DNA of 64,000 bases, taken from Bigelowiella natans CCMP2755 (Eukaryota; Protista; Cercozoa). Positions 30,437-55,253 of the stretch are shown here, piece after piece. Numbering within the stretch: position 1 is the stretch's first letter; each line of letters opens with the position of its first letter. The position numbers and the translations under genes are program-made. Below the pieces are notes generated by a model, which was not told the origin of the DNA, ran no database searches, and saw nothing but the letters and a program-made list of their open reading frames with translations. The stretch is from the NCBI GenBank assembly GCA_000320545.1, contig ADNK01002544.1, positions 77,974 to 141,973 of the forward strand, written 5' to 3'.

Positions 30437-30765
30437 TTTGCACCCGTGAGCAGCGCATCGAAAAAAATCACCTTGAACACCGTTCACATTTGCCACCGCC
30501 AATTGGTGTTCATTTGCACATTCAACATGCACCATGCACAGAAAATGGCACACGAGAAACTAGGAAAGCACACGAAAGCTCGTCCGTGCTGGCTAGCTGG
30601 CGTGCAGCATGCAACTGACGTGCAGACTGCAGACTTCCACGCGCATGCAACACCAGTCGGACAAACCCATCTGTTTGGCCCGCAGTGCGAACGGCAAATG
30701 CCAGGTGGCAGCCAAGCAATGCGTCCAACGTGCGTGCAACGTTTTGGGACCAAGTTTGAACGCTT

Positions 30766-31148
30766 TTGCACTGATTTTGCTTGTCTGCTCCAGTGCTCTT
30801 CAATGACCAGATGATTGCATCAACGACAAACCACCACCTGCAATTGTGGTGTCCACGTTCAAGGAGGCTGTCGAAATGGAAAAGCACTTTGTCACTGAGT
30901 CTCCACCGTGTGAATCACTTGGCATGAACTCAAACCTGGTGAAAGAATGCATCGAATTCTCAGCTGACAGCAGGTCATTGCAGAAATTGGGATGCGATGA
31001 AGTGCACAACACCAGCAACCCACTTGACTTTGTGGAAAAAGCAAGCCTTGAAGGTGAGACCAACTTCTTCGAGCATCGACCCACTCAACATCAGTTGGCC
31101 ACAGCAGCTGATGAGGGTGCAGACCTTGAACGTGGTGAGGATTTCCAA
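30766..31148 (+). pseudogene. Ribonucleotide reductase small subunit (R2), C-terminal fragment, intronless and hypermutated
   Basis: TDFACLL...KEAVEMEKHFVTESPPCESLGMNSNLVKECIEFSAD...LGCDEVHNTSNPLDFVEKASLEGETNFFEHRPTQHQ...EDF followed by CAA. Conserved Tyr residues are replaced by Cys/His, and the expected stop after EDF reads CAA. Confidence 0.9.
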
Positions 31149-32159
31149 CACAGCCGAAAGGTCTTCCATTCGCACGTGTTCTTCTCGGCTCGGCTGGACC
31201 ACCTTCAGGAGAAGTTTGGGAAAAATCGTGTCCGTTGCTGGGGATGTGATGTCCCCGATGTGCGGTCACGACTTTTGTTTTGGGAAAAACACCAATGTCA
31301 TCACAACTGTCACTTTCCACACGTTTGCCCAAAAAAATTGGCACGTTTGAAAACACAAAATTGGCACACTTGAAAGTGCAAAATTGGCACACTTGGGAGT
31401 GCAAAAGACACGTGTGGCAAAAACGCCCAAACGAAGTGACAAATCGATCGATTTTTTGGAGGTTCTCGTTTTTTTTTGGTGAAAACGTGGCACGGAGAAA
31501 ACGGAGAAAAAGCAGAAAACGCTCATCCAGAATTCCAGAACCTTCCACTGCGCACCGACAAACGACATCCTGCCCTCCAGCTGCCACAAACATTGACACT
31601 TTCCACGCGAAGACCTGAAAGCAAACGGTGTGAAACACAACGGTGTCGTGTTCCCGTTCCAATCTCCACGTTTTTTCCTTTCAGGTGAGTGAAAAGTCCA
31701 CTGCTGAAGAAAAAAACAGCAAATCTCCCACTCCTGAACAAGCAAACGACAAGAAAGTGAGCAAAAAAGGACACGATTGGTCTCGTTGTGTTGGCAAGGG
31801 CAGGGTCCAGTTTGGACATTGGGAAGACTTGCCAAAGATTGACGGCTCGGTGAACGATTTTTTGCTGTGGACCAAACGTCACGCAAACGTGACCGGAAGG
31901 ACGTCGAGTTCATCCACGATGCTTGATTGCCTTGCGAAGAACTTCACAAGAAGACCAACACCAGCACTGGAGGTGTCAAGAAGAAGAAGTTCTGCAAAGT
32001 GCTCGCCTGCTTTTCGATGGATGGTTTTCGTGGCATCACAAAAAGTGTCGAACACAAACACCACGTGTGCGACTGTTTCCTCCAAGTCATCACGCTCGGA
32101 CGTGAGTGCAGGGTGAAGTTTCTCCTTGGGCGTGCGGACTGTTTGGAACGTCTGAACGA

Positions 32160-32281
32160 TGACAACAGCTCCGATTCCGATGTCGACGGCTCCCATTGCT
32201 TCGGGGGTTCTTTTGCACTCTTCCAGAGTGACAACAGCTCTGATTCCGATGTCGACGGCTTTTGTGGCTTCGGGGGTTCCT
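32160..32281 (+). repeat. Imperfect tandem duplication, ~69-bp period
   Basis: GACAACAGCTCyGATTCCGATGTCGACGGCT...GCTTCGGGGGTTC occurs at 32161 and 32230. Confidence 0.8.
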
Positions 32282-32579
32282 TGGCTTCGGGGATTTTTTT
32301 GAGGACGAGGATGAGGTTGAGACACTCGACCCAAGTGTGAACGGAACACCACTCAAGGCGAAAAGGAAGAGAGTGGAAGACAAGGACGAGGACAAACACG
32401 AGGACGAGAACGAGTCTGAGGATGACAACCTGGTCAGCCCTCACGTTGGAGTTTGGAGGAGACGGCCCTGGTGCCATCTCCGTTGCGCGAGAGAAAAGAC
32501 ACGTGATTGATGAGGAGTGAGTTCACAGAGGTGCCCACCCTCCAACAGGCCCAGCCAGCTGGCCAGTTCCTGTCACTCC

Positions 32580-33700
32580 AGGAAGGGCACTGCCCTCCTG
32601 GTGCCCACTCGTTCTCTCGCGTGTTGCAAGACTTTGACCCCTGAGTCCAGTGAGTGGAGCAAACAGTGGAACAGGTCGTGATTTCGTGCACGAAACGTGC
32701 AGAAGTGCACGAAGACACAGGCCAAGGTGGCTCGCCCACCTGCAGCCTGTGCACCGTGAAACTTGAAGAGGTCAAGGATCCACGTGAAGTCCACAGGTGA
32801 GGGGTCCGTTCACCTGTGCGGCTCCCATCGGCCGCACAGGCACCTTGAAGTGAGGACAACACTTCCAGTGGGTGCTCGTGGACTGTGACTGAAAACGACA
32901 AGTCCTTTGCGGGTTCTTCCTTCTCCCCCCCCTTGCCTTTTGATTTTTGAACCAAAGCAAGGAAAGGGAGTCCCGTGAAAGTGACCAATCCCCCTCCCCC
33001 CACCCTCCCCACTGAGGATCACCTGCAAGCTCGTGGGGGGCGACGTTGTTCAGCTCGCTCAGTGTGTTTTGCACGAGCGCTGTCGTGAGTTCGCACTTTC
33101 GTTCACCGTTGCGCTGCAACAAAGAGGTGCCCTCTTTCGGAGGAACAAAACAACCCAGCACCAACGTTTTGTTCTCGAAGGAGCGACCTCCGAAGCTCGC
33201 ACCTCTTGCCACTTTGGGACAAAACTCCAAACTTGCAGCTGTTTTTCCCAACGATGGCAACTGTTGAAACAGCTGCACTTGCTGGCTTGCACTCACGACC
33301 CCCTCCCACAAGGGTGCTCCCTTGTCGTCCGTGTTCGAACTTTCAAACTTGACAAGAGGAAAAAAGGGAAGCGTGGCGGGCTTTGAAGGGGTTCGTGCGC
33401 AGCTGGTGTGAGCTGCAGGACTTCAATCCTGGTGAGCTGTGTCGTGCACAGAGCAGTTTTTCGTTGCGATGACAACGCACGCATGCGCGTGCGTGCGCGT
33501 TGTGTCGTGGTTTTTGCCTGCTCTGTCCACACGAGCAACACTGAAACAGTTCTTCTCAGTGACTGAGCTGGTGAGGTCACGTGTTTTTGCCTCTCACCAC
33601 GAGAGCGCACCACTGAAGGCGTTGCACATCGTGCTGCACACGCGTGCCACACTTCGCAACTTGTTGACAACAAGTTGAGAGGAAGGGCAGCGTGTCAGAA
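32580..33700 (+). repeat. Diverged copy of the unknown repeat family also at ~49.5-50.4 kb and ~51.8-52.9 kb
   Basis: Shared blocks GCCAAGGTGGCTC..CCTGCAGC..GTGAAGTCCAC (32720-32794 vs 51883-51956) and CACTTCGCAAyTTG....AGGGCAGCGTGT (33650, 50386, 52793). Confidence 0.7.
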
Positions 33701-35926
33701 CGCTGAGAGTCCATGGCCCGAAGTGTGCAGCTGCGACGTGCAGCCAGCGGGCGTTCGCCGAAGTGCGACAAGCGGCTGCGTGTGCAAGCAGCGGCAAGCA
33801 GGAGCACAGGGCAAGCACGCCAGTGCGACGTGGCAGCACAACGTCGTGCAAGGCACTGTGCTGCGACACGTGGCCACTGGTTCACTTGCTCTGGCAGCAC
33901 GCGTGCAAACCGTGCTGCACGCGCGTGCAGCTGCGTCCTCCTTGAACACAGAACTGAGACCGCCCACCAGCCGCCCTGCACCTGCTGTTTGCTCCAGTGC
34001 TTGCCAGCTGGCCGCCCACGCATCGCCACCTGCGCTGATCGTCCAACAAGAGCGCCAAGGAACCTGGTGCTGACGACCAAGGAGGTCCAGAGGCGTGAAG
34101 GTTCACAGCGGTTGACACCAGCGTGTGGTTGTGACCGATGCGCGTGCGTGCACGCTCCACCTCACAGGAGAACGCCAAGGAGCCTGTTTCCCGCGTGCAG
34201 GCAGTCGACGCGCAATTGCACCAAACGAAGGTCGTGAGTGCGTTGGCTGCTCCGCGTGAGGGCGGATTTGGGAACTTGCATGAACTTTGGCAAAGTCCTC
34301 CAATTCACTTTTTCACCTTTTTTTTCACCCAAACTTTCCCCCGCACTTTGGGTTTTCGCACACTGACCCTTCCACGTCTCAACCAGGACCAGAGGCAACG
34401 TGGAGGGCGGGGAGCACACGGAGGATGTTGAGGGCATGAAAGTGGACGTGGCCATGGACCGCTGCCAACACCGAAAACAGACTCGAAAGTCTTTGGTGGA
34501 CGAGGTCAGGAACTTCGAGAGTGTCGCACAGCGGAAGGTCGCAAAACAACTCTTTCTCCATTGAAGGAAAAGTCAGGACGAGCTTCAAGCAAAGAAGTGG
34601 GAAATCACGTGGCAATCCACGGCCTCTGGTGGCCACTTTGGAGCCTTCCGGCCCAGCCCCCAGGCCCACCAGGGCGGCCAGTGGGACTGAGCCCGATGCC
34701 AGTTGAAGGCCCAGGACCCCCCCTTCCCCCCCCGAGCTCTCACCCCTGGAGAGGCATTGTGCGACCCAAAGGACCAAGCTGGCAAGCCCCCTCGCACTTT
34801 TTCGGCCAAACCTTTGGCTTGGCGACACAAAACTTGTCGTCGCCCATCCAAGGCGGGTGAGGAGTGAACTCGGACCCCTTTTCGTGCAATTGCAGGGAAA
34901 AACGACACCTCCTTGACAAAGTTGGCCCCCCCTGCAGCCAGGGTGCTCGAGTTGTGCAACGGCTTTTCCTTTTGGTCTCCTTCGACACGCGAGGAGCACC
35001 CCCCAAAAAAAGTTGAGAGAGACGATGCTCCACTCTGTCGAGTTTTCAGCCTCCCACGGATCGTCCCTCCACGGCTCCCCTGAGCTGCACGTTGAGACCC
35101 GGAGTCGGCCCCGTGTCCTCACGTGGCACCTCCAAGTTCGTGCTTGACGACCTCCAACTCTCCCCAACCGTTGCAGCGTCGTGGTTGTCGACGTTGGAGA
35201 GTTTGGACCGCCCAGGATCGTGTCGAGCGAGCCAGGTTTCCCCTTCCGTCGACAGGATGATCGGCTCCCTGGCTGTCGCGGAAGGAAGACTCCTCTCTCA
35301 CCAGGCGGGAAAGCCACGATTTTTGTCTTTTTTGGCAGGAAAGTTGGTTTCGAAAAACTCTTGGGGGCCTTCCTGAGAACCCCCTGCACCCCCGGTGGGT
35401 GTTCTTGGTGTTCCCAAGTTGCTGGGGGTCAGTTCTGAGCGTTGGAACCGCTCAACTTTGGTGGGAGGCCTTTTCTTGCACTTCGCTGTTTGACAAAAAC
35501 CGGCACCTTGGCTGATCACTTGTTCCTTGCGTGGGTGCAACTTGGAACTTCCTGGTGTCTCCACCGTGCCAGCGTGCTCGTTGCACTTCTCCACGTCGGT
35601 CGGCTGGTCGGGTGGGCCACGGTGCTGTTTTCGTTCTCAGTTTGCGCTTCCTTTGCGCACGTTGCACTCGGTTCTGGGTGCTCTGGTGCTGGTCTGCACC
35701 GTTTTGCTCGTGAAGCGGCAGCAGTCGGAAACGTCCGAGAGGTCTTGTTGTGCCTCCCACTCACTTGGTTGTTCGTCGTGTGTTCGCCTGCACTGCGTCG
35801 CTTTTTGAGTGAGCCTGCCGTGCACAGCGCCTTGGCAGCGTTGCTCCTCGTTGCAAAAGTTGTGTTCAACGTGCTGAGTCCTGGTTTGCTGTTCCTTCCC
35901 TTGTCAGCGCGACGTTTGCAGGGACA

Positions 35927-37147
35927 GTGTCACAAGGAACGCACGTGCCAGCACCCGAGTCACTTCTCACGAGAAACTGCCTGGACTCCACCGGTTTGCC
36001 TCGCAACGAGCAAGCCGCCAACGACAAGCCTCGTTCAAACTGGGTTCGTCACCAACAACGGGCGCGCGCGTGTGAGAGGCACGCGTTCACTCACTGTCGA
36101 GGTGAACCAGTCACCACCGAGTTGCAACTCGGACTTGCACTGCGGATGCCAGCTGGTGCATCGTGTCTCGACATTGCCACAACGTTCAAGGTGCACGAAT
36201 CCGCAGTGCACAAAACTCCTTGGAGGGTGGTCGTTGCGTTGTGCAACGAGCACTCCATCGAGTTCCCTCTTGGAGAACTCGATGCCCTTCGACACACAAA
36301 AACTGAACTCCGCAGCCGTTCTGAGCTGGAGTGCTTGGAAGGCTGTGTCGGGTGCACGGACGGTTTGCTGACGAAGGTGAGGAAGCAAGGGCAGTCTGAA
36401 ACGTGTGCAAGCAAGCGCTTTCGAAGCCGCAAAGGCTTCGACGCTTTGAACTGCCAAGCCGTTTGCGACGCCCACGGAAGGTTCACTTTGTTCGAGACTT
36501 GTGGTGCTGGATCGCAATCCGATGCACAAGTGTTCAAATCCGTGGAGTTGAAGAGAGCTCTGTTGGACTCGAAGCTGCTTCCTGGTGGGTTTTGGGTCAC
36601 TGGCGACGCTGCACGCCCGGCCTCTGAGTTTTTGGTCGGTCCGCATTCCGATGCGGATGCCAAAGACCCAAAGGCTGACAACTTCAACTGGGCACAGAGC
36701 CAATTGCGAATCCGCATCGAAGTGGCGTTCGGCGGCAAGTTGGTCGGGCGCTTCGGCGTCCTTTAGAAGCCCACTCGAGTGGATCACGCGAGAGCTTCGC
36801 TCGTCGCAATGGCTTGTGCGAAATCGCACAACGCTGGAACGTCACAATCACGTGCGACTTGGAGCACCAACAGCACCACTGCGATCACAAAAAAAACACG
36901 CACGTGAGAACTCCTTGGGACTTGGTCGGCGAAATCATCGACGATGACCACGTCAGTCGCGGTCGATTTGTCCCAAGGAGGAGAGCAGGGCCACGCTTGC
37001 ACCTGTGTCAAACAAACACGGTGGCCCGATGGAGCTTTTGAAGGACGTTTGGTTCCACGCTGCAAGCCATCGTCACTGCCACCTGAGGGAAAGGTTGAAA
37101 CAGGGGGTCTGCGACTTGGGCGTGGTCCGACCCTCAAGCAGCGTTGA
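35927..37147 (+). pseudogene. PIF/Harbinger DDE transposase (DDE_Tnp_4-like), hypermutated relic; TIRs not identified
   Basis: LALRMPAGASCLDI (family GASYLD), GCVGCTDG (GCIDG), SRKGFDALNCQAVCDA, GSQSDAQVF, GDAARP (GDAAYP), FNWAQSQLRIRIEVAFG..LVGRFGVL*KP..ACAKSHN. Confidence 0.92.
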
Positions 37148-37657
37148 GCATCGATCCAAAACCAATGGCACCACCACTGCTGCTGCTGACGAGGGATGAT
37201 CGACTCAGCTGGTCAGGCACAACCGAGCTGCCAGCGTGGCGGGCTGCAGCAGCAGCCTCGAACACCGTTTCGATGACGTTGCGACGACAGCTGCTGCTGC
37301 AGCGAGCGGCGGCAGCAGCCTCAAGTGCAGTTTGAACGATGTCGTTTCGCTGTGTCAGTGACAGCTTCCAGTGAGCGGCAGCAGCAGCCTCGAACATCGT
37401 TCAACGGAAGTGATCGGAAATCCTCGGGCTGCGTCGTTTTCACCTTGCCGCTGAGGACAGCCGATCCAACTCTCAACGTCAGGTTTCTGACTCCTGGTGC
37501 ACTTGTCCCGAGACAGCTGCACCAACTTCTTGACACCCAGGCTCGAACAGCCCTGTGGTTCGGGTTGGCCTCCAACACGTCCAGACGTCAGCGAACCGCT
37601 GCAACACCGAACTCGTCAGCACCTTGCCTCTCCTGTGAAAAGTGCAACTTTGAACAC

Positions 37658-37728
37658 TGCGCCCACCGGGAATTGAACCCGGGACACTTGCTTGGAAGGC
37701 AAGTGTGTTGCCACTGCACCACGAGCGC
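37658..37728 (-). tRNA. tRNA-Gly(TCC), hypermutated and probably a pseudogene
   Basis: Minus strand reads GCGCTCGTGGTGCAGTGGCAACACACTTGCCTTCCAAGCAAGTGTCCCGGGTTCAATTCCCGGTGGGCGCA: a 71-nt cloverleaf with anticodon loop CTTCCAA and T-loop GGTTCAATTCC. The D-arm TGTAGTGGTA appears as TGCAGTGGCA. Confidence 0.9.
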
Positions 37729-37898
37729 TTGTTTTGTGTTGCACGTGTGCACGTGGACGCGTGTGCACACACAAGTTTCGAACACTGCTCACGAGAAAAA
37801 CACAAGGGAAAAGGTTGCACTGTGTCCACGAGGTCGACCTTCGGTCCACTTGACGGCACTTGGCTGCCGATGGCTTGCAAGCTTCGTTGTGCTTCAAA

Positions 37899-38090
37899 AC
37901 TGGAGGAGGCCGTGATGGGTCTCGAGGCCTTGTGGACAGGAGTCTGCGTGTGAGACTCACTCTCGTCCAGCGAGCGAAGAGTGGCACTTGTGTCCAGTGG
38001 CACGTTCGATGACGTCACCTGTTCTTGGTGCAGGTGCCTGGACTTTCTTCACGACGCGGTTGTGCCGGTTGAAGTTGCAGGTCAAGTGAA
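37899..38090 (-). pseudogene. Inverted, hypermutated Ty3/Gypsy RT fragment (N-terminal RT motifs)
   Basis: LTCNFNRHNRVVKKVQAPAPRTGDVIERATGHKCHSSL..DESESHTQTPVHKASRPITASSS aligns to the intact LAHNFIRHNRVIKRIQTPTPRIDDVIEHVIGYKYYSSLDKNESYMQTPIHKTSRPITAFSS (~41510-41693). Confidence 0.9.
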
Positions 38091-38385
38091 CAAGTCAAGT
38101 TTGGTGTTGACCTGCGTTGGGTGTGGAAAAGTGAGGAAAAGGAAGAGAGCACAAAGAACTGTGAAGGAGAGGGACAGGAAGTCCTTCGAGTGCAGCTGCC
38201 CTTCTTGCTTGAGGCTGCTTCACAGCGACAACCGAGTCGAAGTCACCCACGTGGGTTCCTTTGTCGTCGTTCTTGTCGTTGTCATCGTTGTCATTGCACG
38301 TTCCCGTCGTCGTCGACACCAATTCCCTTTGCACCAGCAGTGAGCAGCAGCAGCGTCCGTTGAGACACAGCAGCGTGCAGAGGTG

Positions 38386-38796
38386 AGGAAGTGGCACTTC
38401 GTCGTGTTCCCTTGCGGCCCAAGCACGCCAGGCGACGCACTTGCTGGTCAGAACCACGAGGCGTGCACACACAATGGCGTGGCTTCAGCGTCGTGGGTGT
38501 TTGCATTCGCACGTGCAGGTGGTGATGCGGTGTGCACCAACGTGGTCGTCGCTCAGACTTTCCTCCTGGAAAGCACACTCGTCAGGTTTGCACACTTTGG
38601 CTTCACTGTGCGGCTCCAAAAACGTGCCTTCCTGGCTGCAAGGACAAAACGGTGTGGGTGCTGCCTGCACAAGGCCGAATTGCCCCGAACCCTGAGAAGG
38701 TCGCTGCACTGCAACAGGCTCCTGTGCCCAAAAACGCAAAAAAAGTGAAGTCACTCCCACAAACAGCAGCGTGGACGCTGCGCAGGTCCGCTCCCA
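38386..38796 (+). pseudogene. Hypermutated Ty3/Gypsy RT relic, 5' of the insertion point
   Basis: RKWHFVVFPCGPSTPGDALAGQNHEACTHNG...FAFARAGGDAVCTN aligns to the intact RKWHFVVFPYGLSISGDAFSSQNYRAYTHDG...FVFVYVDDDIICTN (41700-42111). Confidence 0.95.
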
Positions 38797-39122
38797 TGTA
38801 GCGCGTACCACTACGCGGGCACAAGTCACGTGCGACAACAAAGGGGTTGTCGCGGATATAGAATATAGATAACGTAGATATTAATACAGCATAGGCACGT
38901 GGGTTCCGGCGGGACTCATGGCAGCACACCGGAAGTGTGCTGCCCCACGTGCGGCGGCATTCGCGAAAGCTTCGCGAATGATTACGCAGTGCACGATTTA
39001 ATAAAAATATAATCTTTAATAAAAATAAACACAACTCTTCAAAAGGAAGCAAACGTGCCTTTCCCCCCCCCTGCCTACTTGTGCACGTAGCGCCTCGGCC
39101 TGTGAACACCTTACGCGCAACA
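38797..39122 (+). repeat. 5' LTR
   Basis: TGTAGCGCGTA...TACGCGCAACA (10/11 terminal inverted repeat), AT-rich TATA-like tract and AATAAA signals. Confidence 0.97.
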
Positions 39123-39127
39123 ACCTT

Positions 39128-39150
39128 TGGCTTCCACACACGGGAAACGA
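39128..39150 (+). promoter_or_regulatory. Primer binding site complementary to a tRNA 3' end (G discriminator, Asp/Glu-like; identity uncertain)
   Basis: TGGCTTCCACACACGGGAAACGA, whose reverse complement TCGTTTCCCGTGTGTGGAAG-CCA resembles T-arm plus acceptor strand plus CCA. It begins 5 nt after the LTR. Confidence 0.75.
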
Positions 39151-39161
39151 TTTGACTAACA

Positions 39162-42100
39162 ATGTCACAGCAGCTAGAAGAACAGCAGGACTTTGGCTCG
39201 CAGGCCGTGCAAGGGCACGAGCAGAAACAGGAAAGGAAGGGCGATACGGACGCTAAGGAAGGAGGAGGAACACCTCCACAGGCACCGCCGGGACCAGCAC
39301 CCGGGATTAAGAAAGCAGATGCAGCAGCAGAGGCACTGGAGAACTTCTACGAGGCGGACGACGAGGACGTGGCCGCCGAAAGCAAGAAGGTCGTAATGGC
39401 ATTACGAGCCTTGCGACCCAGGGCGAGCAACTACGCCAAACTGAAAGTATCGATAGAATACAAGTATCAGACACATGATGTTTGGGCAGCTATCATGCAG
39501 GACATCATGGATTACGAAGCAGACTTACCTCCAGAGTGGGCAGCTTTGTTTAGGAACGACGGGGGTCTGGGCGCCTCGCGGGGGACGACCCAGAGCACCG
39601 TCAAGCAGCAGCAGCCGGTACAGCGGAACACCCAGTTCATGTCTGTTAAAACAGCACCGGTTATGATAACGAAATACAACGGGAAAAGAGGTGAGGCAAG
39701 GAGGTGGTGGAAGAACGCTAGGAGTATACTCTGCGACTTTACCCCTAACCCCACCGAAAACGACAAGCTCAAATGGCTAGCTATAATAAAGCAAGCCATG
39801 GACCTTTACGAGACAGGCAGGACCCGGATCAGGCAGCTAGAGAAAATACACACTACAGTTAGTGGGCTACGAGACGTTGAGGCGATAATGAAGGCTTTTG
39901 TAAATGAACAGGATGCTAACTCCCTACCCCAGGCTATTAGAAAATACAGAGCAATGATGCAGCATGAGAGAGAACCTGTTAGAGACTTTGCCACGCGCTT
40001 CCAGGATATGATCGACGAACTACATGATTTTAATTACAACACAGGTGATGATCAGGCAAGGTTTGAAGAGTTCAAGTTAAAGATAAAGGAATCCACTTAC
40101 GTTACGGAGAAAGGCTACACCACGATGGAGGCAGCAGTGCAGGCTATATCCCTACGCGAGCAGGAGCAGGACCGCAAGTTTACCAGCCCTAAGGTACCTG
40201 GCATAGGAAACATTAACGCTATTAAGCCGCAGCGAGACTGGTACAAGGACAGGGAAGGTAACCGACGTTGCGGATACTGCTCACGTAAAGGGAAACACAC
40301 CGCTAAAGACTGCAGAGACAGGAAAGAAGGACGACCCAGGATGACGATCAGGCAGCTCAACGAACACTACGAGAAGTTAAAGAGAAAGAAAGGCAGAGGA
40401 CAAGGATATAACAACAGCAAATGGCAAGGCAGCAACAACGGGAAGAACAATAAATATAAGAACAAAAAGCAGAACAGTATCAATGCTATACAGCAGCAGA
40501 TAAACGGAATATTAGATCACCTTAAGCAGGCGCCGACGAAGACAGCAATACCAGCAACGCAGGACCAAGACAAGCCCATGACCCTAGACGACATAAAGAA
40601 CTTAGGAGTATGCAACATTAATGACGAAGACGCTAACAGGACTATCAAAGTTGCTATGACCAAGGTTAAAGTTAAAGACAGCTACGGAGACTACAAGAAA
40701 CTACCTGCCCTTTGGGATAGTGGCAGCATGCCGAAGTCCTTCATAAGCCTAAGCACAGTAAGAAGGTTAGGACTATTGGATCAAGTGACTAAGAAAGAAC
40801 GTAAATATGCTCAAGCAGACGGAAGCTCTTCCATGAAGACCGTCGGTGAGCTAATGCTAAAGCTACAGATACCTGGCAGCGACGCGGAGACCCAAATCAA
40901 GACCCGAGTAGCCATGACTTTATCCATGGAACTACTCCTCGGACAGGATGCCCTAGAAAAATTAGGGGGGATCATATCATTCTACAATCACAAGATATAC
41001 TTTGCTAAGTTGCCAAAGAAGTCAGGCAGGACCATCAGCCAGAACATGATACGGCTTGACGAGTGGACCTCTGAGTCAAGCGTTAATGCGTTAGAGTTTA
41101 TGGACCTAGCGGACAACAAGCTACCTACACCTACCGAGCTACGGAAGAAGAACCCCGGCAAGACCATCCGACAGATAACGGAGCTACTGGACAAGACCCC
41201 CCCAGCTGATGATTGGGATATCGACAAAGGCAAAAAGTACATTAATAAAATATTAAACGAGAAGTACTCTGACATCACCAAGCCGACGACGAAGCCCTCC
41301 AGCAAGCTTACCCCAGTAAAGATCGAGCTAAAGAAGGGATACGAAGAGTGCATCATCAATGACCCAGAACATAGGCGACCGGAAGCGGACTGGGAAAAGA
41401 TAGAGTGGCAGATCAATGAATGGGCAAAGGAAGGGAAGATAGAGCCAAGCAACTCACCATGGAACGTGAGACATGTGCTAGCTAAGAAACCTACTTACCC
41501 TTTCTTCCGCCTGGCGCACAACTTCATCCGCCACAACCGAGTAATAAAGAGGATCCAGACACCTACACCAAGGATAGATGACGTTATTGAACACGTCATA
41601 GGATACAAATACTACTCTTCCCTAGATAAAAATGAATCATACATGCAGACACCCATCCACAAAACCTCCCGCCCCATTACCGCGTTCTCCAGCAGGCACA
41701 GGAAGTGGCACTTCGTCGTATTCCCTTACGGCCTAAGCATATCAGGGGATGCGTTCAGTAGTCAGAACTACAGGGCATACACACATGATGGGATGGCGTC
41801 TGTGTTGTGGGTGTTTGTGTTTGTGTATGTGGATGATGACATAATATGTACCAACACAGTCGTCGCTCAGATCTTCCTCCTGGAAAATATATTTATTAGG
41901 TTTGCACACTTCGGTTTTACTATTAGACTGCAGAAGTGTACATTCCTAGCTACAAGAATCAAGTGGTGTGGATATTACCTGGAGCAAGGCCGCATCACCC
42001 CAAACCCCGAGAAAGTAGCAGCACTACAGCAAGCCCCTAAACCTAAGAATGCAAAGGAGTTAAAGTCATTCTTGCAGACTGCAGCTTGGATACTACGTAG

Positions 42101-44135: not shown

Positions 44136-44141
44136 AGGTCT

Positions 44142-45081: not shown

Positions 45082-45149
45082 GGTTGTGAGCCTACGCGGC
45101 TTCCGCCGCCCAGTTACGCCCAAAAAAAATTTGGCTCAAACAGTTCAGT

Positions 45150-47250
45150 CTAGTAGAACTGGTTTGAAGGTGCCACGATACGAACTTGGTCGGTGATGGT
45201 CGGATTGCTAGGTGCTGGTGCACCGAAAATCCAACCAGTCTGGAAAGAATGAATCTGTGTTGGAACAAAACGAAATGTGATTACCCATAACTCAAAAACA
45301 AAAATTTGCAACCAAGCAAAACAACTTAACAGAGGGGCAAAACTTAAAAAAAGTCAAATCGACCAACTGCAACAAGGAACAAATAGCAAACAAAAAAAGC
45401 GAAATTAAAATGTTCCCCATCAAACACCAAAATGGAATCATAACCACAAAGTTGTTATGATCAAATTGGAACTCGAAAATGAAATTATAACCACTTGTGA
45501 CCAAAAAGTTGTTGTTATGATCAAATTACCCCTTGTTCCCTGGCAAGATTCCCATCCCAGGCATGTGCTATGAAACGAAATAGCGGGACACTGTTCTTCC
45601 CTGAAACAAATACCACAACGATCTAATAAAAAAAAACAATGGTCTCATCTAGATCTTTACAGATCAAGGAAAGATTTACGAACCTTGAGAACACGACCGT
45701 AGCATCAGAATATTGTGCACATCGGAGAATGGTGGATCACGACAAGTAGCTGAACCACCATGCTCTCCCATGCTGTAACAATTACAGGGAATGAATGAGT
45801 GACACACACGACAAAATGATAGTCCAGCATGCAGAAATACGATTCAAGGATGTGCACTCATAAGTGAATCTAAGAAACGCATACCATATGACAGTGAAAC
45901 GATTTGTGAATCTCTCGTACTTACTTGCACCATGCCAAATTCAAATGCATAAATTTTTCATAATGATGTAAACAAATCGAAAATGAAATTAATTCCAAGG
46001 AAAAGCATGCCAACCTGCGTTCGCTGCGGCCTGTAATGCCCGGAACGTGAGTGGTAAATCGCGGCTACCTGATGAACAAAGCAATTATTAACAGCCTCAT
46101 GCCGACACTGTGATGAGCGCGATTTGCATCACGGGGTTACAATTAAGAATCATGCACCGATTCACGACGCATACGTGCATTTTTTTTCCAGACAGTACCG
46201 CAATCATGATTGTGATATGCGGGCATGTGACCGCAAACACATGATACGAAAATAGACAACAAAATCACGGAGGTGCTGACAACACCTCCGATGTCGAAAT
46301 CTCCATGCATGACAATGCATCCAATGTACCTGCAGGGTTGCAGCGTCTTTACCGCTCGCAAGTCCTAGGTAACCTACATGAGGATGTTGAACGACGGTGA
46401 ACTTACGACTTGACCTAAGGAATGGGGGTTCGACGCAAGCGCCTTCTTGCGAAAGAAGAATGTTGCATCGAATAAAATCAAAGCAATTACCTTGGAGATA
46501 TCCCCGTTATTCGATGTCGATATTCATAGTCCTCCTGTCAATTCCGACCTGTTAGAGGTCAATTAGTAAGAGTCAACATTAATACCGAAATCGATAATTG
46601 TGGTCTGTACCGGCTGGTGTCGGAAACGAACCACGTAAGCTCTGAAGAACAATCGCTTACGCAGATGAAAAGGATCCTGAAAATAAAAAAAAAAACAATT
46701 GTTCAGCGCTATTGAGCAAACGAATACCGCAGGTAATGCTATCGAATAATCGAAGGACGATACTCGTAGCAACATTACCGACTAACGAATATTGCGACTC
46801 GAGATTAAATGATGTTGATACAATCAACATCATGCGATTGTGACAAAACAGAATTTCGGTATAGTCATATGTGACAAAATGTCATAGCTATCCTCCACGA
46901 CCAGTCTGTGAGCACGGTCAACTATGTGGGACGACAATGCAAAAAGATAACAGTCAGGAAATGGGTAGGGAACAGAATGGAGACGTCCATTCTACCTCCA
47001 CTTCATTAACTGACTGTGTTTCTAAATTATAGATCCCGTGTGACTCCTAAGTAATTACCATGAACATGAAAATTGCAAATGAAGCGTTTAGTTGAAAGCA
47101 CACACACGAACATATGACTCTCAAGCTCAATTATGAGAAGAGCATGTACCTCCGTCAGTGATGCTCCGAAGAACGGCCTCAACGAAATCTTAATGTCTTG
47201 TCTGCACGTTATAAAGATTTGCTAAGAGGCACAACGTAATAGTTGTGAAT
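45150..47250 (-). CDS. Probable intron-containing gene of unknown function, not TpA-depleted; 5' end unresolved
   Basis: AG/GT-bounded segments on the minus strand: DPFHLRKRLFFRAYVVRFRHQPVQTTIIDF, GYLGLASGKDAATLQ, TCRDPPFSDAQYSDATVVFS, GKNSVPLFRFIAHAWDGNLAREQG, TGWIFGAPAPSNPTITDQVRIVAPSNQFY*. Confidence 0.45.
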
Positions 47251-47857
47251 TACATTCACACAATTACCGCATAAGAGACGTATCGCTCTTACTCCATCCA
47301 GTCCTTCATAAATTAGCGGAATAATTTCACTCAAAACTTACAGATATTCATGCTCATATACAACCTTGTCAATGAGAAATAATTGGAAAGAAAATATTCA
47401 AAATGGAGATTAGACAACACACAAAGATGTGTAACACGAAGAGTTGAAGATATATCACAATCACAAATTCGACTTAGGAGAAGATGTAGAATCTATCACG
47501 AGGAATGATACTCTACTATCTATAAACTCGACAACAGGTTAGTCTACTTCGAAAATTGAAAACCACAGTATATATACTCGAAAACATAAAGGATGAAGCT
47601 AACTTTCACGTTTGGTCATCATACTATCTATCACATGAGTATACTCCCTACCTTCCCATCTCTCATATTGTCATCGTCTGTGTATGGTGTTGCACGAATA
47701 TAACCTCACCTAATGATAATAACAACCAACAGCCACGCTCAATGCATCGTGATTTCTATTTCCTACAATGAATGAGACCCTACCCCACCCCCCAGCCTTT
47801 CCTTACAGTCATTTAGTGTTAAACAAATGACTGAAGACACAACATATACATCTACAA

Positions 47858-49254
47858 GCCGAGGTACATTATGTACCTGCAGCTCTCTCTTCACGAATGT
47901 ACACATGCATGGTTATATGCGTATGCATATACCCATTGGCACAGCTTGATACTTACCCTCCCTCCCATCCCCTCTGCTCTTGGTGAGATGTTCCTTCGCA
48001 GTCCTCCCCTAATATCGTTAGATATCGATGTAATTAATATCGAACAACTATACATACGGGTTAGGGGATCTAAATATTTTTTTTTCAATTTTTCCCCCCC
48101 CCCCCCCCGGCCTCGAAATAATTTATAAGTTAAGAGTGCCATGCATAAATTACACAACAAAGGTGCTGAGGTAGATAACTACCTGCAACACCGCTCGATG
48201 AGCACACAACCAAGATTATAACTTTTCTTAGTCATCCTCCCCCCCCCCCTTACAATGTCTGACATCCAGCGGAATCTCTCTTGAGATCCTGAGGAGAAAA
48301 GAAATAAGCCAAATAATGTCATTAAGCGATTAATGATAAATGAGTTCACACAAAGTAATGAGCAGCTGAGGTAGATTAACTACCTGCAGCGTGCATAAAA
48401 TGAAGTATGCCATGGCCATGTTATGGACCTAAATGATAAATGAGCAAATGATTAATGAAATTTTAATTAGTGCTAAGCAACTACATGGATTTAAATGAAA
48501 ATGATGTTTTCATAATTTGATTATTATGATGCTGAGGTAAACTATGCACCTACAGCTTCTGTATTGGGTCATAGAGAAATTTGGGAGAAGGCGTCCTCGC
48601 TTCCCCCCCCCCCCCCCCCCCCCTTCCCCCTTCCTTCTCCATAACGACTCATCTCACCTTTCCTCATTCACGATTCTCGACGCCTCAGAGGATATTGTTC
48701 CGACCTAAATATCCAGATGTTCAGATACAAAGAAAATTTTTTCAGACACCTTCCCCCCCCCCCCCTCCCCTTCTCACCCCCCCCCCCTACTACTCTATTG
48801 TTTCGGCGGACATGTATCACCTTCAGAGGACCGCATAGCATTGAGGGCCTTGCCATCGGTCTGCAATATTTGCATGCAACATGCGGTTTAGGGAATATAA
48901 AATGCCGTGCAGACTTCCCCCCCCCCCCCCCACCCCCTTCCTCTCTCTGAGCCATCCTCATTTGGACACTCAAATTGCAACCACTTGCATGTAATGAATT
49001 TAGACTGCAACTATCGGCTCAGTGTGCTGAGGTACATCAGATACCTGCTGCAACGCATTGTTCCTGTGAGCCATTTTTCCTCCCCTCCCACTCCCCCCTT
49101 CCTCCCATTTGCATCACCTCATGCAAGTACCTGGCTTGTTCCAGCTGAGCGGTTTTTCAAATTTTTTTTTGGCCGCCCATGTCATCAATGATGATTGATG
49201 ATGAATGAACAATGCAAAATGATGAGCAGCTAAGGTGACTCACCTGCCTGTAGC
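47858..49254. repeat. Array of six imperfect palindromes GCTGAGGTA-N6-7-TACCTGCAGC interspersed with poly-C tracts
   Basis: Copies at 47858, 48165, 48365, 48531, 49026 and 49229 (degenerate). Confidence 0.8.
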
Positions 49255-50429
49255 TTGCACACAGAGGCGCTGGTCCGAAACGAATTTTCCCAATGAACAA
49301 TGAAGTTGCATGATGCAGCAACGCATCGAGATCCATCCTCTACTTGATTGAAAATGATTGAAGAAAATGATCGCACGAAAGCAAGGCAGCTAGACCACCT
49401 TGCGTTTCGCGGAACCCAGATCAACTAGGGGCCGCCTGCACCTGTGCACCTGATTGGGCCTTCCAGTTTTGCCCGGTCTTGCCTCCCAATGCACATCACA
49501 AATGCAGTTTGGGTCAGTTGTGTGTGCGAACATTTGCGTGCAAATGGTCGCACACAGTGTCTGAGATGGCTCCGCAATGCGGCCATCTTGCCGCCTAGTT
49601 TCTGGTCATGTTGTGGATGCATGCAAAATCCACAACTGTGAGTCAAAACTGTGTCATTTGCGGGCTCCTCAGTGAAGCCCTGCACCCATGATGGGAATCA
49701 CGGTCCCGGAAAGGAAATTGAAGCCAAGGCAGCTTCTCTGCCTTCAGCTTTTGCAACTTCATTTTCACATGTCCTGTGGATGTTTGTGTCGTCTGCAGAT
49801 GCATGCCCTCCCCATGCAACCACATTCATTCCCCTCCCCCCCCCTCTCCCTCCGCGCACCTTGCACCCCAGCCGTGGGTGCTTGTCTGGCGCCTTTGTTT
49901 CATGAGTGAGCGAACAAACATTTGAGCATTTGTTGCTTTTCTCACTCTAGCACGGGCATTTGAAGGAACACCGAAGTGGTGCTTTCCCTTTTTTTTTCAT
50001 TTTTTTTTCAGACATTTTTTTCAAGGGAGATGTCTCCGGGACATCTCCCGAGTTTCGTCACATTTTTTCCGAAACGATGCACCCCAATGGGCATCGCCTT
50101 TTCCCCCCTCTCTTGCTGATCAACAGAAGAGAGGAAAAGGGTGGCGTGGTCGTGGGACGTTGTCCCAGCGGTGCCACTGCAGGATCAATGATCCTGGCAG
50201 CTCGTGAGACTGAGCAGATCAGTTTTTCACGATGGCTGCATGCATGCATGCACGCATGCACGCGTGCCAGCCGTTGTTTTTGTCTGCTCTGGCTCTGGCA
50301 TGCTGGCCAGGACAGTTTTTGATGATGCGCATGGTCATCTTTTCTGTCCTGGAGCATGGGGCAACAACACATCGCCCGTGTGTTGCACTTCGCAATTTGC
50401 TGCACAGCAAATTGAAGGAAAGGGCAGCG

Positions 50430-50833
50430 TGTTGGAGTGCTTTGCACTCAATGCGCGAAGTGCATGCTTGTGGTGGCAGTGGCAACGCCGGCGGGCGTTT
50501 GCAGGCTGCGACAAGCAGTGCAGAATGGACTTCCAATGCAGGCAGGTTCTGTGCCTGCGACAAGGCAGGACAGTGCTCATGTGCTGCATCAGCCATGTGC
50601 CAGCAAAGGAAGTGGGCGCGTCTTCCTTCCTTCTGCAGCACGATGTCATGCACGCAGTTCAGGTGATTTCGCCTGATGACAGTTGACTTGGCACATGCAT
50701 GTGAAAAGGTCCGAACTCATCAGAGAATCGAGGCAGCCGCTTGTGCAGCTGACCTCCCACCCTTCCTTCCTTCCTCCATCTGACTGTGCTGCTAGCCTGC
50801 ATTCTGCACCGCGCCGCCCATTCACTTCCAACA
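50430..50833 (+). repeat. ~400-bp direct repeat, copy 2
   Basis: Near-identical to 44678-45081. Confidence 0.95.
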
Positions 50834-50895
50834 AAGCCAAGTGCCACAAAGTCAGCAACCCCGTGGACTGACTGGTCTGAGCTGGGGACGGCACG

Positions 50896-53200
50896 TTGGA
50901 GTGCTTTGCACTCAGCGCGCGAAGTGCTTGCTTGAGCAGCCAGCTGCAACGGCAGAGAAACCTGCGGGCGTTTGCAGGCTGCGACAAGCACGCAGCAAGA
51001 GGCTGCAAGTGCAGGCGAGTTCATAAGTTCTGTGCCTGCGACACGCAAGTCGCGGCACGTCGCTGCGTGCACCTCCTTTGTGCCAACAAAGGAAGCAAGC
51101 CTGGTGACCTGCTTGACTGATGGCACCATGCATCGCCACGTGGTGCACGTGGTTTGGGCACTTTCGCCTGGCCAGTGTGATGTGTGTGACCTGTGTTGCA
51201 TGCACGTGCAAAAAGGTCAGCCACGTCATCACAGAATCCGAACAGACCACCGTCTGTCCCCCCCCCTCTGCCTCTGGCGCACACCTCTTCTCCGAGGGAG
51301 CTCCTGCGTCCTGAAAAGGATGACAAAGTCAGCTTGCATCGTTGAGATGCCAATGACATTGACACGTTCAAAGAACAGCACCATTGGACTGAGGGAACTT
51401 GTCCACCTTTGACACCAAGCTCGGCTCCGGCCTTGCTGGGTTGTCCGTGTGGTCAACGAGGGAGTGACAAGTGAATCGTTGGCAAGTTGAGTGCAGCCAC
51501 GTGGTGAAAACGATGAGGAAGGTCCTGGCCACTTCGTCGTTGAGCAGCTCAGGCACACCAAGTGCCTGCAGCACCGACGACCGGCTCCGGCCGCGCTCGT
51601 TCAGGTGCCCAAACAACCAAAGTGCAGTTGCGCATTGAAGCACACCAAACCAGCAAGAGTGAAAACAAAAAGGAAACACCCAGCTGTGAACGTGTTGGGT
51701 GTGCAGCTGAGGCAGACCAACTGCCTGCAGCTGCGTGCACATCGACACACAAGGGAAGGGACCACCTCACTTCCTTTTCCCGCCTTCCCATGCAGCTGAC
51801 TTCTGTTGCCTGCAAAGTGAGCAAGCACAAGCAGAAGTTGGAGGAGGTCACACGAAGTTGCACGAAGAGTGCAAGTCTCAGAGCCAAGGTGGCTCCACTG
51901 CCTGCAGCTTTTGGGCTGCAATTTCAGGACGTGTTGCAGACTCGTGTGAAGTCCACGGCTGTGACCCAAAGTTGGACCATCCGCAGGCTTCTCAGTGAAG
52001 CTCTGCGGCAGCAATGGGGTCGTGTTGAGCACGACCCCGCAAAGAAAGTTTGAGCCAAGGCAAGTCAACTGCTCTCAGCCCAAACGTTCCAGGTTCCGTG
52101 GGAGCTGCAGAGTTTTGCAAAACCCACGGCCAGGGCCTGGTGGTTTTCACGTGACCCTGGCCCTTCCCCCCCTCCCTCCCCTCGCCACCCTGGTGCCTTC
52201 CGCACGGGGTGTGCGAGTTGGGTCCCCTTGGTTTGTGCGGCGGCGAACAAGTGTTCAAACGTTCGTTGCCGCTCGCACTCAGGTGCAGCTCTCTTGGTTC
52301 AAGTGCCAAAGAGCCTTGCATCCCGTGTGCAAGCGGACGAACACTCGAACACCCATTGTCGCTTGCACCAAAACTGAGGTCTTTGGTGTTGAACCAAAGA
52401 GCCTTCCCCTCCTTTTTTTTCCACGGGAGACGTCTCCGAGACACCTCGCCGGTCTCGTTTTTTTTTTCGAGACGTCACGAGGGGACGTTGTGTTTTTTCC
52501 TCCCCCTTTCCTTCCTGATCAACGGAAGGGAGAAAAAGGGAAGCGTGGGCGTGGAGTGCGCTTCGTGCCATCCCAGCGACACCACGTCAGGATCGATGGT
52601 CCTGGGAGCTCGAGGGGACGAGCAGAGCAGTTTTTCCCAACTGCGGCACGTGTGCATGCACGCACGCACACGATGCTCTCGTTGTTTTTGTCTGCTCTGG
52701 CTCTCCCTCGATGCTCGGGACAGTTTTTTGGTGGTTCGTGTGGTCACCTTCCCTGTCCGGAGCGCATGGCGTGAGCACACGCGTGCGCAATGCACTTCGC
52801 AACTTGCTGCACAGCAAGTTGGGAGAGAGGGCAGCGTGTTGGAGTGCTTTGCACTCAGCGCGCGAAGTGCTTGCTTGAGCAGCCAGCTGCAACGGCAGAG
52901 GAACCTGCGGGCGTTTGCAGGCTGCGACGAGCACGCAGCAAGAGGCTGCAAGTGCAGGCGAGTTCTGTGCCTGCGACACGCAAGTCGCGGCACATCGCTG
53001 CGTGCACCTCCTTTGTGCCAACGAAGGAAGCATGCCTGGTGACCTGCTTGACTGATGGCACCGTGCATCGCCACGTGGTGCACGTGGTTTGGGCACTTTC
53101 GCCCAGCTGGCGTGACGTGTGTGACCTGTGTTGCACGCGTGTGCAAAAAGGTCAGCCACACCGTCACAAAATCCGAACAGACCACCGTCTGTCGCTCCCC
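50896..53200 (+). repeat. Further paralogous repeat copies (50896-51270 matches 52838-53200; 49550-50430 matches 51870-52840)
   Basis: GTTGGAGTGCTTTGCACTCAGCGCGCGAAGTGCTTGCTTGAGCAGCCAGCTGCAACGGCAGAG... at 50896 and 52838; CTCAGTGAAGC block at 49668 and 51991. Confidence 0.88.
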
Positions 53201-54164
53201 CTCTTTTGGCGGGCTTGCGGTGGCTGCTGGTGCTTGTGCGCGGGACTGTGCTGTCGACGTCACCAAGTCAACACGCTGTCTCGTGTGCTTTTGAACCCTG
53301 GTGACGACTTGCGAGGAAAACAAGAGGTTGGCACAGGAGCAGAACAGGCAGTGGGTTCAGAGGGTTCACGAGGTGCAAGGAGCATCGTGCCCTTCGAAGC
53401 AAAGGAGAAGAGGAGAAGAAGCAAGCGTGTGAAACGATGCCCTGACAATGGACCGCACTTGTTCAAGTGGCAGAGTGAACGAGCCTGGAGGAACACAACT
53501 TGTGAAGGGAGGCAGCAGAGTCAACAAGCCTGGGAGAACACAATTGGCAGAAGGAAGCAGCAGGAGCGACACGGGTTGAGGCCGCAGAGGAGTCTGGGTG
53601 AGTGGAGTTGCATTGCTTGCACAGAGGGAGCAGTGTGTGACAATGCAGCTTTGACCAGGTGGTGCCAATGGTGACACAGACGTCAAACGCTTCAAGGGTG
53701 CATGCGTGCCTGACGTTGATGGCGTGCACGTCAACCACTGCGCACGTTGTGCATTGACAGCTGGTGCTGTCCAAGCAGAACGTGTGTCACGTGCATCAAG
53801 GATGTCAAGAGTTGCTTTGAGCACGATGGATCACGTCAATGGGTTTGCACGGTGCACGCGCAGGGTCGTGCAAGACCTGGTTGAGTGCACACGTTTGGCG
53901 GGCGGTGCCATTGCACGATGGGACGAACGACGTTGTCGTGCACAGCTCGTGCGTGCAAGAAGCTTGTTGTTTGTGCACGTGCAATGAAGAGCCTGGCTTC
54001 GTGCACATCGATGATCCCAAACCAAAACGAGTGGATTGGCGTTGTCGAGCGTGCAACACACGAGGCAGTCCGTGAAGTTGCAAGGTGCACTCATTGCAGA
54101 CACAGCAGTGCACTGTGCACGTGACGTGCATTGTGCATTGCGTGTCCATCGTGCAAACTGCCGG

Positions 54165-54580
54165 AGGGAGGTGGCTCACGACGGCCGAGAAACAAAGGTC
54201 GGCGTGCTCGTCACGCAAGAGACGCCTCCTCGTTCCCGTGACGAGGACGACCCCCATTGGGTCGGTCCATGCCGGGTTGCCAGGCGCATCGGAAGGAGGG
54301 TCTGTGGGACAATTGACACCTGCGAAGGAAAAGAAATTGGCAGGCAGGTGGACCACCTCAAAGTTTTCAACGTTGGTGACAACGTTGTCAAGGACCTGGT
54401 CCCGACGCAGGCGGGAGGACGTTGCCTCCAACTCCTCTCGCGAGTTGGGACTGCAGTGTTTCAGGACGTCATCCGACTTTCGTGTCCAGCACTTGTGAAC
54501 GTCACACGAACGCCTGCCGAGTGCATTGCTTCTCAACCCCACCCTGGCGAGAACGCACCAACTCAGCGGGTGTGTTGAGG
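54165..54580 (+). pseudogene. Hypermutated relic of a related Ty3/Gypsy pol C-terminus (post-integrase SH3-like region plus start of the Dam-like domain)
   Basis: EVAHDGRETKVGVLV...RSRDEDDPHWVGPCRVARRIGRRVC...RQVDHLKVFNVGDNVVKDL...PHPGE vs intact KVPYDGRVLKEGQYV...RSRNKQDPFWGGVAKVTERKGRKQY...RHISHLKNYDIGEKLLEDV...GYPGL. Confidence 0.78.
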
Positions 54581-55253
54581 AACCTCGCACGAACTTGGTG
54601 GAGCACGAACGTGGACCCGCAAGGCTTTCAACCACAAACGTTCCAAAGAAGTTTGGTGGTTGACTCGTGTGCCACCACCAAGTTGGAACCAGAAGTGCAC
54701 AGGGAGGTTCAAGAACCGTTGGGTTTGCGAAGGAAAGGGGGGACACCTTTCTTCGAGCAAAGTGGGTGGGAGCACGATGGAAGCAACAGTGGATTCAAAG
54801 GAAGCAGGTGCGAAAGTGGTTGTCTCTTTTCAAAAAGGCCCAACAATTTCAGTCTTTCCGTGCAAACAGCTGCCTTTGTCACCCACTTCCTTCGGTGGAG
54901 TCCCATTCGAGAACGTTCTGCGGGGATTCGGGGCGAAGCCCGAGATTGGGATTCATGAACACTTCAACACTTCACATGTCGCTCGGTCGTTTCCCCTGTG
55001 ACAGAGCCCATTTGAAACCTAGGCAAAAAAGTCACAAAGATCCAACATTGTGCCGATTCTTTCATGTTTGCAGCCCAAATGCAGGCCATTTTTCTGTTTA
55101 TCGCACTAGTTTGTACGCAAGATTGGTCTGAATTTGGTTTGGCAAGATTTCAAACAATTTGCATCGCAGGCAAAGGGGGGAAGAAGGCAAGGGGGGAGGT
55201 CATTTCGAAATTGACAATCTCATTGAGTTCATCAAATTCATCAAAGCTCAACG

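Follow-up and report, generated by a model that had tools for sequence, protein, structure and literature searches.

Complete loss of TpA in a silent, transposon-rich domain of Bigelowiella natans: an end state of TpA-directed A:T to G:C change

Introduction

How can more than eight kilobases of nuclear DNA come to hold a single TA dinucleotide beside host genes in which TA is found at ordinary frequency? The question is raised by a stretch of 64,000 nucleotides from the cercozoan Bigelowiella natans CCMP2755 (GenBank assembly GCA_000320545.1, contig ADNK01002544.1, positions 77,974 to 141,973 of the forward strand), here called the window and numbered from its first letter, in which a domain of dead mobile elements is almost free of TA. 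The initial annotation of this domain, made from the letters alone, proposed an undescribed defence process that changes A:T to G:C at TpA in foreign DNA. Our analysis finds the reading of the mutational process right, with defence as its likely role, and the word undescribed wrong: the locus represents, in fully converted form, a phenomenon published in 2026, and the spectrum had already been measured in mutation-accumulation lines of B. natans (Mettrop et al., 2026; bioRxiv 10.64898/2026.01.13.699255).

A natural change of A:T to G:C at a defined dinucleotide of nuclear DNA is the reverse of what mutation bias usually produces, and of fungal repeat-induced point mutation (RIP). Should an enzyme be responsible, nature would possess an editor of adenine (or thymine) in DNA. 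To the published phenomenon we add an independent confirmation from sequence alone, the proof from a pair of long terminal repeats (LTRs) that the change occurs after insertion, and an 8-kb end state. We further add a second-tier target, ApT, and a spared context, CTAG, which any candidate enzyme must reproduce.

Two blocks cleared of TpA

The loss is concentrated in two blocks, R1 and R2, with a transition zone to the left of R1 and an intermediate island further upstream. Dinucleotide counts are given against the number expected from base composition, or as the ratio of observed to expected (o/e).

30595-38796, no strand: TA-free block R1 in its end state, 1 TA against 396 expected, AT o/e 0.38, G+C 56%
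51025-55019, no strand: TA-free block R2, 0 TA, AT o/e 0.43, holding the LTR-like pair 50895-51269 / 52838-53204
30019-30594, no strand: left transition zone, 8 TA in 576 b, AT not depleted, overlapping spliced and expressed exons
4400-5800, no strand: third, intermediate island, 19 TA against about 95 expected, TG+CA 1.5-2x, AT near normal

The lone TA within the 8202 b of R1 lies at 36764 in the context TTAG, and the neighbouring ones are found at 30594 and 38799. R2 is bounded by the TA at 51024 and 55020, and the larger stretch 49501-55019 holds only 4 against 264 expected. Outside the blocks the dinucleotide is present at near-normal density, with 2337 of 2664 expected in the left flank (o/e 0.88), 660 of 767 in the right flank (0.86) and 652 of 703 in 38797-49000 (0.93). 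The initial annotation had described TA as near-absent from 30595-38796 and 51030-55019 and normal in the neighbours, and our counts agree with it almost to the base. TG and CA are raised in both blocks (o/e 1.37-1.52) and are nearly equal in R1 (CA 695, TG 725); AA/TT stands at 1.3-1.4, and G+C amounts to 56-57% in the blocks against 40-42% in the flanks.

In the left transition zone the 1-kb values are 0.15 for rhoTA and 0.97 for rhoAT. An intact long (TA)n/(ATA)n microsatellite at 29700-29760 lies about 250 b before this TA-poor zone, so that the process must be very local. In the island at 4400-5800, 12 of the 19 remaining TA belong to CTAG, from a recurrent GCTAGC-like motif, and the frames of the island gave no Pfam match. 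Mild shortfalls of TA are also seen at 25001-26000 (47/70) and 63001-64000 (42/62), regions rich in short dispersed repeats; such repeats are common to 7.5, 13.4, 23.2, 24.7-25.7, 26.7 and 61-63 kb.

Read support and transcription

The plainest alternative is that no mutational process acted at this locus, the letters being either an artefact of assembly or base calling or the native composition of the source, GC-biased gene conversion included. As regards an artefact, 99% of the sampled words of 29500-39400 are present in 14 DNA runs from 11 samples. Contigs built from k-mers of three runs reproduce the blocks letter for letter at a single-copy depth of 76-87, as in the flank: those of X1 and X2 span 30127-33769 and 33822-38822 with no differing letter, and those of X1 and X3, which span 51229-52629 and 53366-61275 and so pass beyond the right edge into host DNA, have none either. 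All of the DNA runs are flagged as possible source of the assembly and their platform is unrecorded, which leaves some room for the artefact and makes this a confirmation of the TA-free state at the level of reads that may come from the source sample itself. The native form of the alternative is taken up below with the relics and the LTRs.

Both blocks are transcriptionally silent, and expressed host DNA is found no more than a few hundred bases beyond their edges. RNA depth is 0-0.5 over R1 and 0-1.6 over R2, against 3-6 and 20-33 on host exons, and no RNA run was listed with the sampled words of 29500-39400. To the left, the exons 30144-30178 and 30400 to about 30500 are RNA-supported, and the introns 29926-30143 and 30179-30399 have GT..AG borders; R1 begins about 100 b past the last RNA-supported exon of this spliced gene, the final 576 b of which are partly depleted in TA. 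At a few places RNA from X21 differs from the DNA (33399 G>A in 4/4 reads, 49998-49999 CA>TT in 17/19, 53277 T>G in 16/16); at almost zero RNA depth, these are probably transcripts of paralogous copies.

The spectrum of change in dead elements

The domain was dissected by comparing the window with itself, which revealed a nest of LTR elements. A young Ty3/gypsy element of normal TA content interrupts an old gypsy relic that can be aligned with it, and three unrelated relics lie in R1.

38797-44512, plus strand: young Ty3/gypsy element, with identical 326-b LTRs at 38797-39122 / 44187-44512 and CCCA on both sides
38386-38796, plus strand: left part of the old gypsy reverse transcriptase (RT) relic, TA-free, 72.5% identical to young-element 41700-42112
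37900-38077, minus strand: inverted piece of the old gypsy RT relic, 71% to young-element 41519-41692
44517-44677, plus strand: old gypsy relic, continued, 75% to young-element 42135-42264
50853-50892, plus strand: old gypsy relic, resumed after element 2 (described below), 80% to young-element 42280-42319
30813-31124, plus strand: relic of the ribonucleotide reductase (RNR) small chain, C-terminal part of about 104 codons (Pfam PF00268, E 2.6e-10; PDB 2p1i, E 7.6e-21)
35813-36763, plus strand: Harbinger (DDE_Tnp_4) transposase relic (Pfam PF13359, E 2.1e-10)
37658-37728, minus strand: tRNA-Gly(TCC) gene within R1 (ARAGORN; Rfam RF00005, 61.9 bits)

None of the 62 TA sites of the young copy is kept in the aligned old relic, in which 27 read TG, 18 CA, 6 CG and 11 something else. 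Substitutions in the main relic piece are dominated by A>G (35) and T>C (35), against 14 G>A and 8 C>T, and in the relic alignment C>T and G>A stay at background level. The excess depends on context, with A>G at 62 of 126 TAN, 3 of 24 GAA and none of 12 GAG. In the RT relic all eight tyrosine codons of the young copy are changed (six to Cys, one each to His and Gln), and the residue is unchanged in 122 of the 182 codons compared.

The same loss is found in sequences of quite different origin. The RNR relic shows Y>C and Y>H against PDB 2p1i, and the Harbinger relic shows Y>C, Y>H and Y>R when aligned with P0076 and P0077, two relatives to which it is 53-60% identical (P0077, at 60%, is source-named Amorphochlora amoebiformis). 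In the Rfam RF00005 alignment, the tRNA gene has UG in place of UA at positions 8-9, and in its D-loop GGUA has become GGCA; both losses fall at positions that vary among tRNAs, and the gene may still be functional. The initial annotation had already pointed to the changed tyrosines of all three protein relics and to the D-loop, as well as to a stop codon changed from TAA to CAA. This last claim is plausible, the frame of the RNR relic reading ...EDF and then CAA, and it depends on what we take to be the C-terminus of the RNR small chain. Its wider claim of a TpA-directed A:T to G:C process on both strands, across the unrelated dead gypsy, Harbinger, RNR and tRNA sequences, is borne out by these data; neighbouring host DNA and the newly inserted LTR element, TA-rich in its account, were left alone.

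These relics also bear on native composition: coding sequence cannot natively lack all tyrosine codons, and the eight of the young copy are all changed in the relic.

A second target and a spared context

When conversion at TA only was simulated on four source stretches, AT o/e remained at 0.87-1.15 and CG was about 0.6. The blocks themselves have AT at 0.38-0.43, lower than in the simulation, and CG at 0.79-0.85. In the relic, isolated AT (with no adjoining TA) is kept at only 4 of 21 sites, and A>G is more frequent at NAT (25/70) than at NAA and NAG together (19/140; p 5e-4). The LTR-like pair of R2 (50895-51269 / 52838-53204, 94% identical) shows AC-versus-GT differences. On these comparisons ApT stands out as an apparent second, slower target. 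Three zones (4400-5800, 30019-30594 and 49100-51024) have lost most of their TA at near-normal AT, which gives the order of events: TA is lost first and AT later.

The TA that survive in depleted zones are not a random sample. Twenty-six of 41 lie in YTAR, whereas in normal DNA 518 of 2920 do (p 2e-10), and CTAG accounts for 20 of the 41 against 119 of the 2920; a G follows in 25 of 41, and TAG is the most resistant context. Since regrowth from CA and TG would give only 5-6% CTAG, the surviving CTAG are best seen as spared sites. The hierarchy of targets that emerges from these comparisons has TA in most contexts as the fastest, CTAG and YTAR as slow and ApT as slower still, with AA/TT runs spared. 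Gene conversion has no such TA/CTAG context rule.

Change after insertion, with strand chosen site by site

The decisive evidence on where and when the change takes place comes from a second element, nested in the old gypsy relic.

44678-50833, plus strand: nested LTR element 2, with 404-b LTRs at 44678-45081 and 50430-50833 and the target duplication AAGCC

Five differences separate its two LTRs, two of them CA/TG, two TA/CA and one G/A. As the LTRs were identical at insertion, these changes arose afterwards and in place. Six conversions have occurred on 10 TA site-copies, compared with one other change on about 800 site-copies, and the excess at TA per base is roughly hundred-fold or more, with a very wide error. 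The nesting itself indicates that the old gypsy relic was split by element 2 first and then by the young element.

TA in element 2 is mixed: the LTRs hold 3 and 1 against 19 expected, the interior has o/e 0.5-1, and 49100-50430 is nearly TA-free. At insertion its LTRs had about five TA sites against 19 expected; thus the parent was already depleted and still moved, and depletion can be inherited by mobile copies. The initial annotation had itself raised the possibility that depletion is intrinsic to the active source copies. For element 2 this holds in part, its LTRs having been TA-poor from the start, and this is also the one observation here that favours native composition. Taken with the read contigs, the lost tyrosines and the context rule, it leaves the view that no mutational process acted at the locus very improbable.

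Strand choice is random from site to site, which argues against processive action on one exposed strand. Counts of TG versus CA per 100-500 b are binomial in both blocks (p 0.19-0.99) and not in the flanks (p<1e-4), and the site fates along the relic form 21 runs against 22.6 expected; neither the binomial nor the runs tests found strand patches of TG versus CA in the blocks.

ADAR-type editing acts on double-stranded RNA and prefers 5' U and 3' G as neighbours. A history in which ADAR-like editing of transposon transcripts, followed by reverse transcription and re-insertion, produced the blocks could draw on the many retroelements among the relics and on the 5' T preference, which is ADAR-like (Mettrop et al., 2026). 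We consider this history extremely improbable. The CA/TG difference between the LTRs of one element needs change after insertion, the strands are hit equally and without patches, TA is missing as well from the DNA transposon, the RNR fragment, the tRNA gene and the spacers, and the blocks are untranscribed. Moreover, TAG is the most resistant context here, opposite to the 3' G preference of ADAR, so the flank rule speaks against an ADAR-like enzyme. In the published lines, new mutations arose in integrated single-copy DNA (Mettrop et al., 2026).

The DNA contigs also hold variants. Compared with 44001-64000 they differ at 18 places, of which eight (45569-47147) are T>C or A>G, all on TpA; the rest are one adjacent pair TG->CA, one T>C on ApT and seven others. 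A depth of 2-3x single copy and the joint of 47207 to 49699 in both runs suggest that these variants represent paralogous copies rather than new mutations. This joint, with 21 other letters between, is found in the contigs of X1 and X3, and points to a second copy of element 2 that lacks the 2.5 kb present here.

Relation to the published hypermutation of viral DNA

Mettrop et al. (2026) described hypermutation at TpA in the giant-virus and virophage DNA integrated in the genome of Bigelowiella natans. Of 302 new single-nucleotide mutations in 15 mutation-accumulation lines, with 3132 generations in total, 231 lay within two regions of integrated viral DNA, and 230 of these 231 were A>G or T>C, all on TpA and leading to TpG or CpA (Mettrop et al., 2026). 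The same study reports a block-confined mutation rate about 1000-fold over background, 124 clusters of 1-kb windows poor in TpA and rich in CpA+TpG, TpA-poor genes in which DDE and RT domains are over-represented and, from prediction only, an ADAT2-like candidate enzyme, Bn78255 (Mettrop et al., 2026). Our literature searches found no other paper on this spectrum.

The ApT target, the sparing of CTAG and the low rate at which R1 passes the cluster rule are absent from the preprint text, and a term search of it found no ApT, LTR or retrotransposon. In our own window phase, which may differ from that of the preprint, rho TpA is 0.00-0.31 in R1 and rho CpA+TpG is at least 1.52 in only one of eight whole 1-kb windows; only 49001-51999 falls under the cluster definition in this phase. 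The low pass rate is attributed to later changes (CA>CG, AT>GT/AC) that dilute the CpA+TpG signal, and the most fully converted domains may accordingly be under-counted by the published rule.

From the 211 mutations on 6169 TpA in 3132 generations given in the preprint text (Mettrop et al., 2026), a rate of about 1.1e-5 per TpA per generation would follow, at which 400 TA would be cleared in about 5e5 generations. Regrowth from the 1420 CA/TG sites would leave about 0.04 TA at steady state in R1, in line with its single TTAG, and the blocks offer next to no TA on which new mutations could fall. Element 2 would be about 3.6 million generations old, judged from its one LTR difference outside TpA. 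As regards continuing activity, about 2.7 regained TA are expected in the two blocks and one is seen, a difference short of significance, given that the domain is dated by that one LTR difference.

Proposed mechanism

The direction and context of the change and its action after insertion are observed. For the chemistry behind them, our preferred reading, to which we give a probability of about 0.7, is that adenine in 5'-TA-3' is deaminated on either strand of silenced foreign DNA and that the resulting inosine is copied as G. The lesion would be inosine, read as G in copying; the silenced state of the domain, rather than the copy number of the sequence, would guide targeting; and activity would be episodic. 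The outcome would be one of defence, through the destruction of tyrosine codons and other codons that contain TA.

Two other chemistries have to be weighed against adenine deamination. Thymine of TpA in silenced DNA may be modified, to 5-hydroxymethyluracil or a base-J-like form, and then miscopied or misrepaired to C. TA is self-complementary and the spectrum is symmetric, as the near-equal CA and TG of R1 illustrate, so that T>C describes the data as well as A>G. In support of this, 5-hydroxymethyluracil of dinoflagellates is reported to favour TpA and TpC, and in the telomere repeats of kinetoplastids a T that precedes A is replaced by base J. On the other hand, 5-hydroxymethyluracil is to our knowledge not a strong T>C mutagen, and the candidate put forward in the preprint is ADAT2-like, with no thymine hydroxylase among its proposals (Mettrop et al., 2026). 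We regard thymine chemistry as unlikely, with a small but real chance of being right.

The initial annotation also listed error-prone repair. Such repair, or faulty copying, at TpA steps of silenced DNA would need no dedicated base-modifying enzyme, as when TA is nicked or processed as a mismatch and then filled in with a bias, and it would likewise give site-by-site, strand-symmetric changes. It fits less easily with near-exclusive transitions under a four-letter flank rule, and we know of no repair pathway with this spectrum. A rate about 1000-fold above background and confined to blocks (Mettrop et al., 2026) points, in addition, rather to an enzyme that has a binding pocket. Such a repair origin seems to us a slim prospect.

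Several observations weigh against adenine deamination as set out above, or against parts of it. A>G on one strand is T>C on the other, and sequence by itself cannot separate adenine from thymine chemistry. In the young element 0 of 48 LTR TA have changed, as expected if it inserted very recently or if position is not all that guides targeting; the measured rate would make it less than about 6000 generations old, unless it is not a target. The flank rule is not significant when applied to site fates (YTAY TG 12/CA 5, RTAR 3/3, p 0.62), the trend being as predicted. The island at 4400-5800 has 12 CTAG where simple sparing would leave about 4, and this may in part be local sequence. The ApT tier rests on a long-term comparison with small counts, for which the young copy is not the true ancestor, and in the lines of Mettrop et al. 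(2026) mutations were on TpA only, unlike here, where ApT is depleted too. The loss of ApT could be a long-term tier that an experiment of 3132 generations could miss; it would extend the description of the family, and membership is not excluded by it. Finally, amphioxus ADAT2 (BjADAT2), the one eukaryotic ADAT2 known to edit DNA, is described as preferring GAA for A and TCG for C (C>T) on that substrate and as favouring hairpin loops (PMC10354150). The ADAT2/3 pattern is unlike the one found here, where GAA (3/24) and GAG (0/12) rank among the contexts least changed and C>T shows no excess, and the ADAT2-like protein of the preprint therefore stays a candidate.

Other features of the domain

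A Pfam scan of 143 stop-to-stop frames of the domain (E<=0.01) gave the RNR and DDE_Tnp_4 relics and otherwise weak DUF matches only; with TAA and TAG gone, long open frames in the blocks are expected by chance. The same search on 130 frames of the flanks gave EF-hand, UPF0060 and a weak PA28 only. No upstream part of the RNR relic was found, a tblastn search with the RNR of a giant-virus metagenome-assembled genome matching residues 248-350 only, and a search for longer relatives of the relic found none. The giant-virus RNR matches it at 43%, no closer than the cellular R2 in PDB.

The young element has TA o/e 1.13 and an open reading frame at 39156-44132 (1659 aa) with RT, RNase H and integrase zinc domains in Pfam; it is highly repeated and expressed, and its LTR ends were set by loose contig ends at 39122 and 44512. 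Over 13-20% of the query part its polyprotein is 100% identical to the jgi/Bigna1 models 72851, 87804, 89981 and 87409, which marks the window as nuclear DNA of B. natans. Its matches in the protein atlas are generic Ty3/gypsy clusters with animal-phylum labels, and the animal origin at which they hinted is rejected. Summed DNA contig depth over its LTR is about 5e5, compared with 76, and the LTR is extremely abundant in RNA too. A poly(A) addition site lies in the LTR near 39044/44434, and many RNA reads join opposite strands within it. Element 2 carries C15-C20 homopolymer tracts at 48073-49117, about 150-160 b apart, at which the read contigs break.

Comparison with known systems

Fungal RIP has a similar result: repeated or foreign DNA becomes saturated, where it lies, with transitions in a specific context, its composition shifts, its reading frames are broken and the affected blocks have sharp edges. 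RIP requires duplicated sequence and a sexual cycle. R1 is now single-copy at 95% likeness except for 33508-33841, which describes its present state only. The B. natans lines were propagated by single-cell bottlenecks, and a sexual stage is unmentioned in the preprint text (Mettrop et al., 2026). The direction of change in RIP is opposite, since it changes C:G to T:A at CpA and creates TpA (PMC7296669), whereas TpA is destroyed here and CpA and TpG are gained.

Enzymes of the ADAR and ADAT2-TadA families share with this process an A that is read as G after deamination and a U or T on the 5' side of the edited A. ADAT/TadA edits A34, which follows U33, in the anticodon loop. ADAR hyper-editing agrees with the present locus in the 5' T, and differs from it in its 3' G and in the strand coherence and restriction to retro-copies that its genomic traces would show. 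It can be speculated, tentatively and with the balance of our judgement leaning against it, that the loss of TA reflects one conserved DNA-acting enzyme system of algae of the SAR group (stramenopiles, alveolates and Rhizaria), distinct from ADAR and from characterised ADAT2, fast at TA, slow at CTAG and YTAR and then at ApT, and keeping whole silenced domains TA-free in a form that escapes the published rule.

The closest system is that of Mettrop et al. (2026), with which the locus shares the species, the change of TpA to TpG or CpA on either strand, the gain of CpA+TpG and the foreign origin of its targets, represented here by the gypsy RT relic, the LTR pairs and the Harbinger transposase. 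The two differ in how far the change has gone: the viral regions there keep TpA at 3.3% and 9.2% of dinucleotides (Mettrop et al., 2026), whereas conversion here is complete over 8.2 and 4.0 kb.

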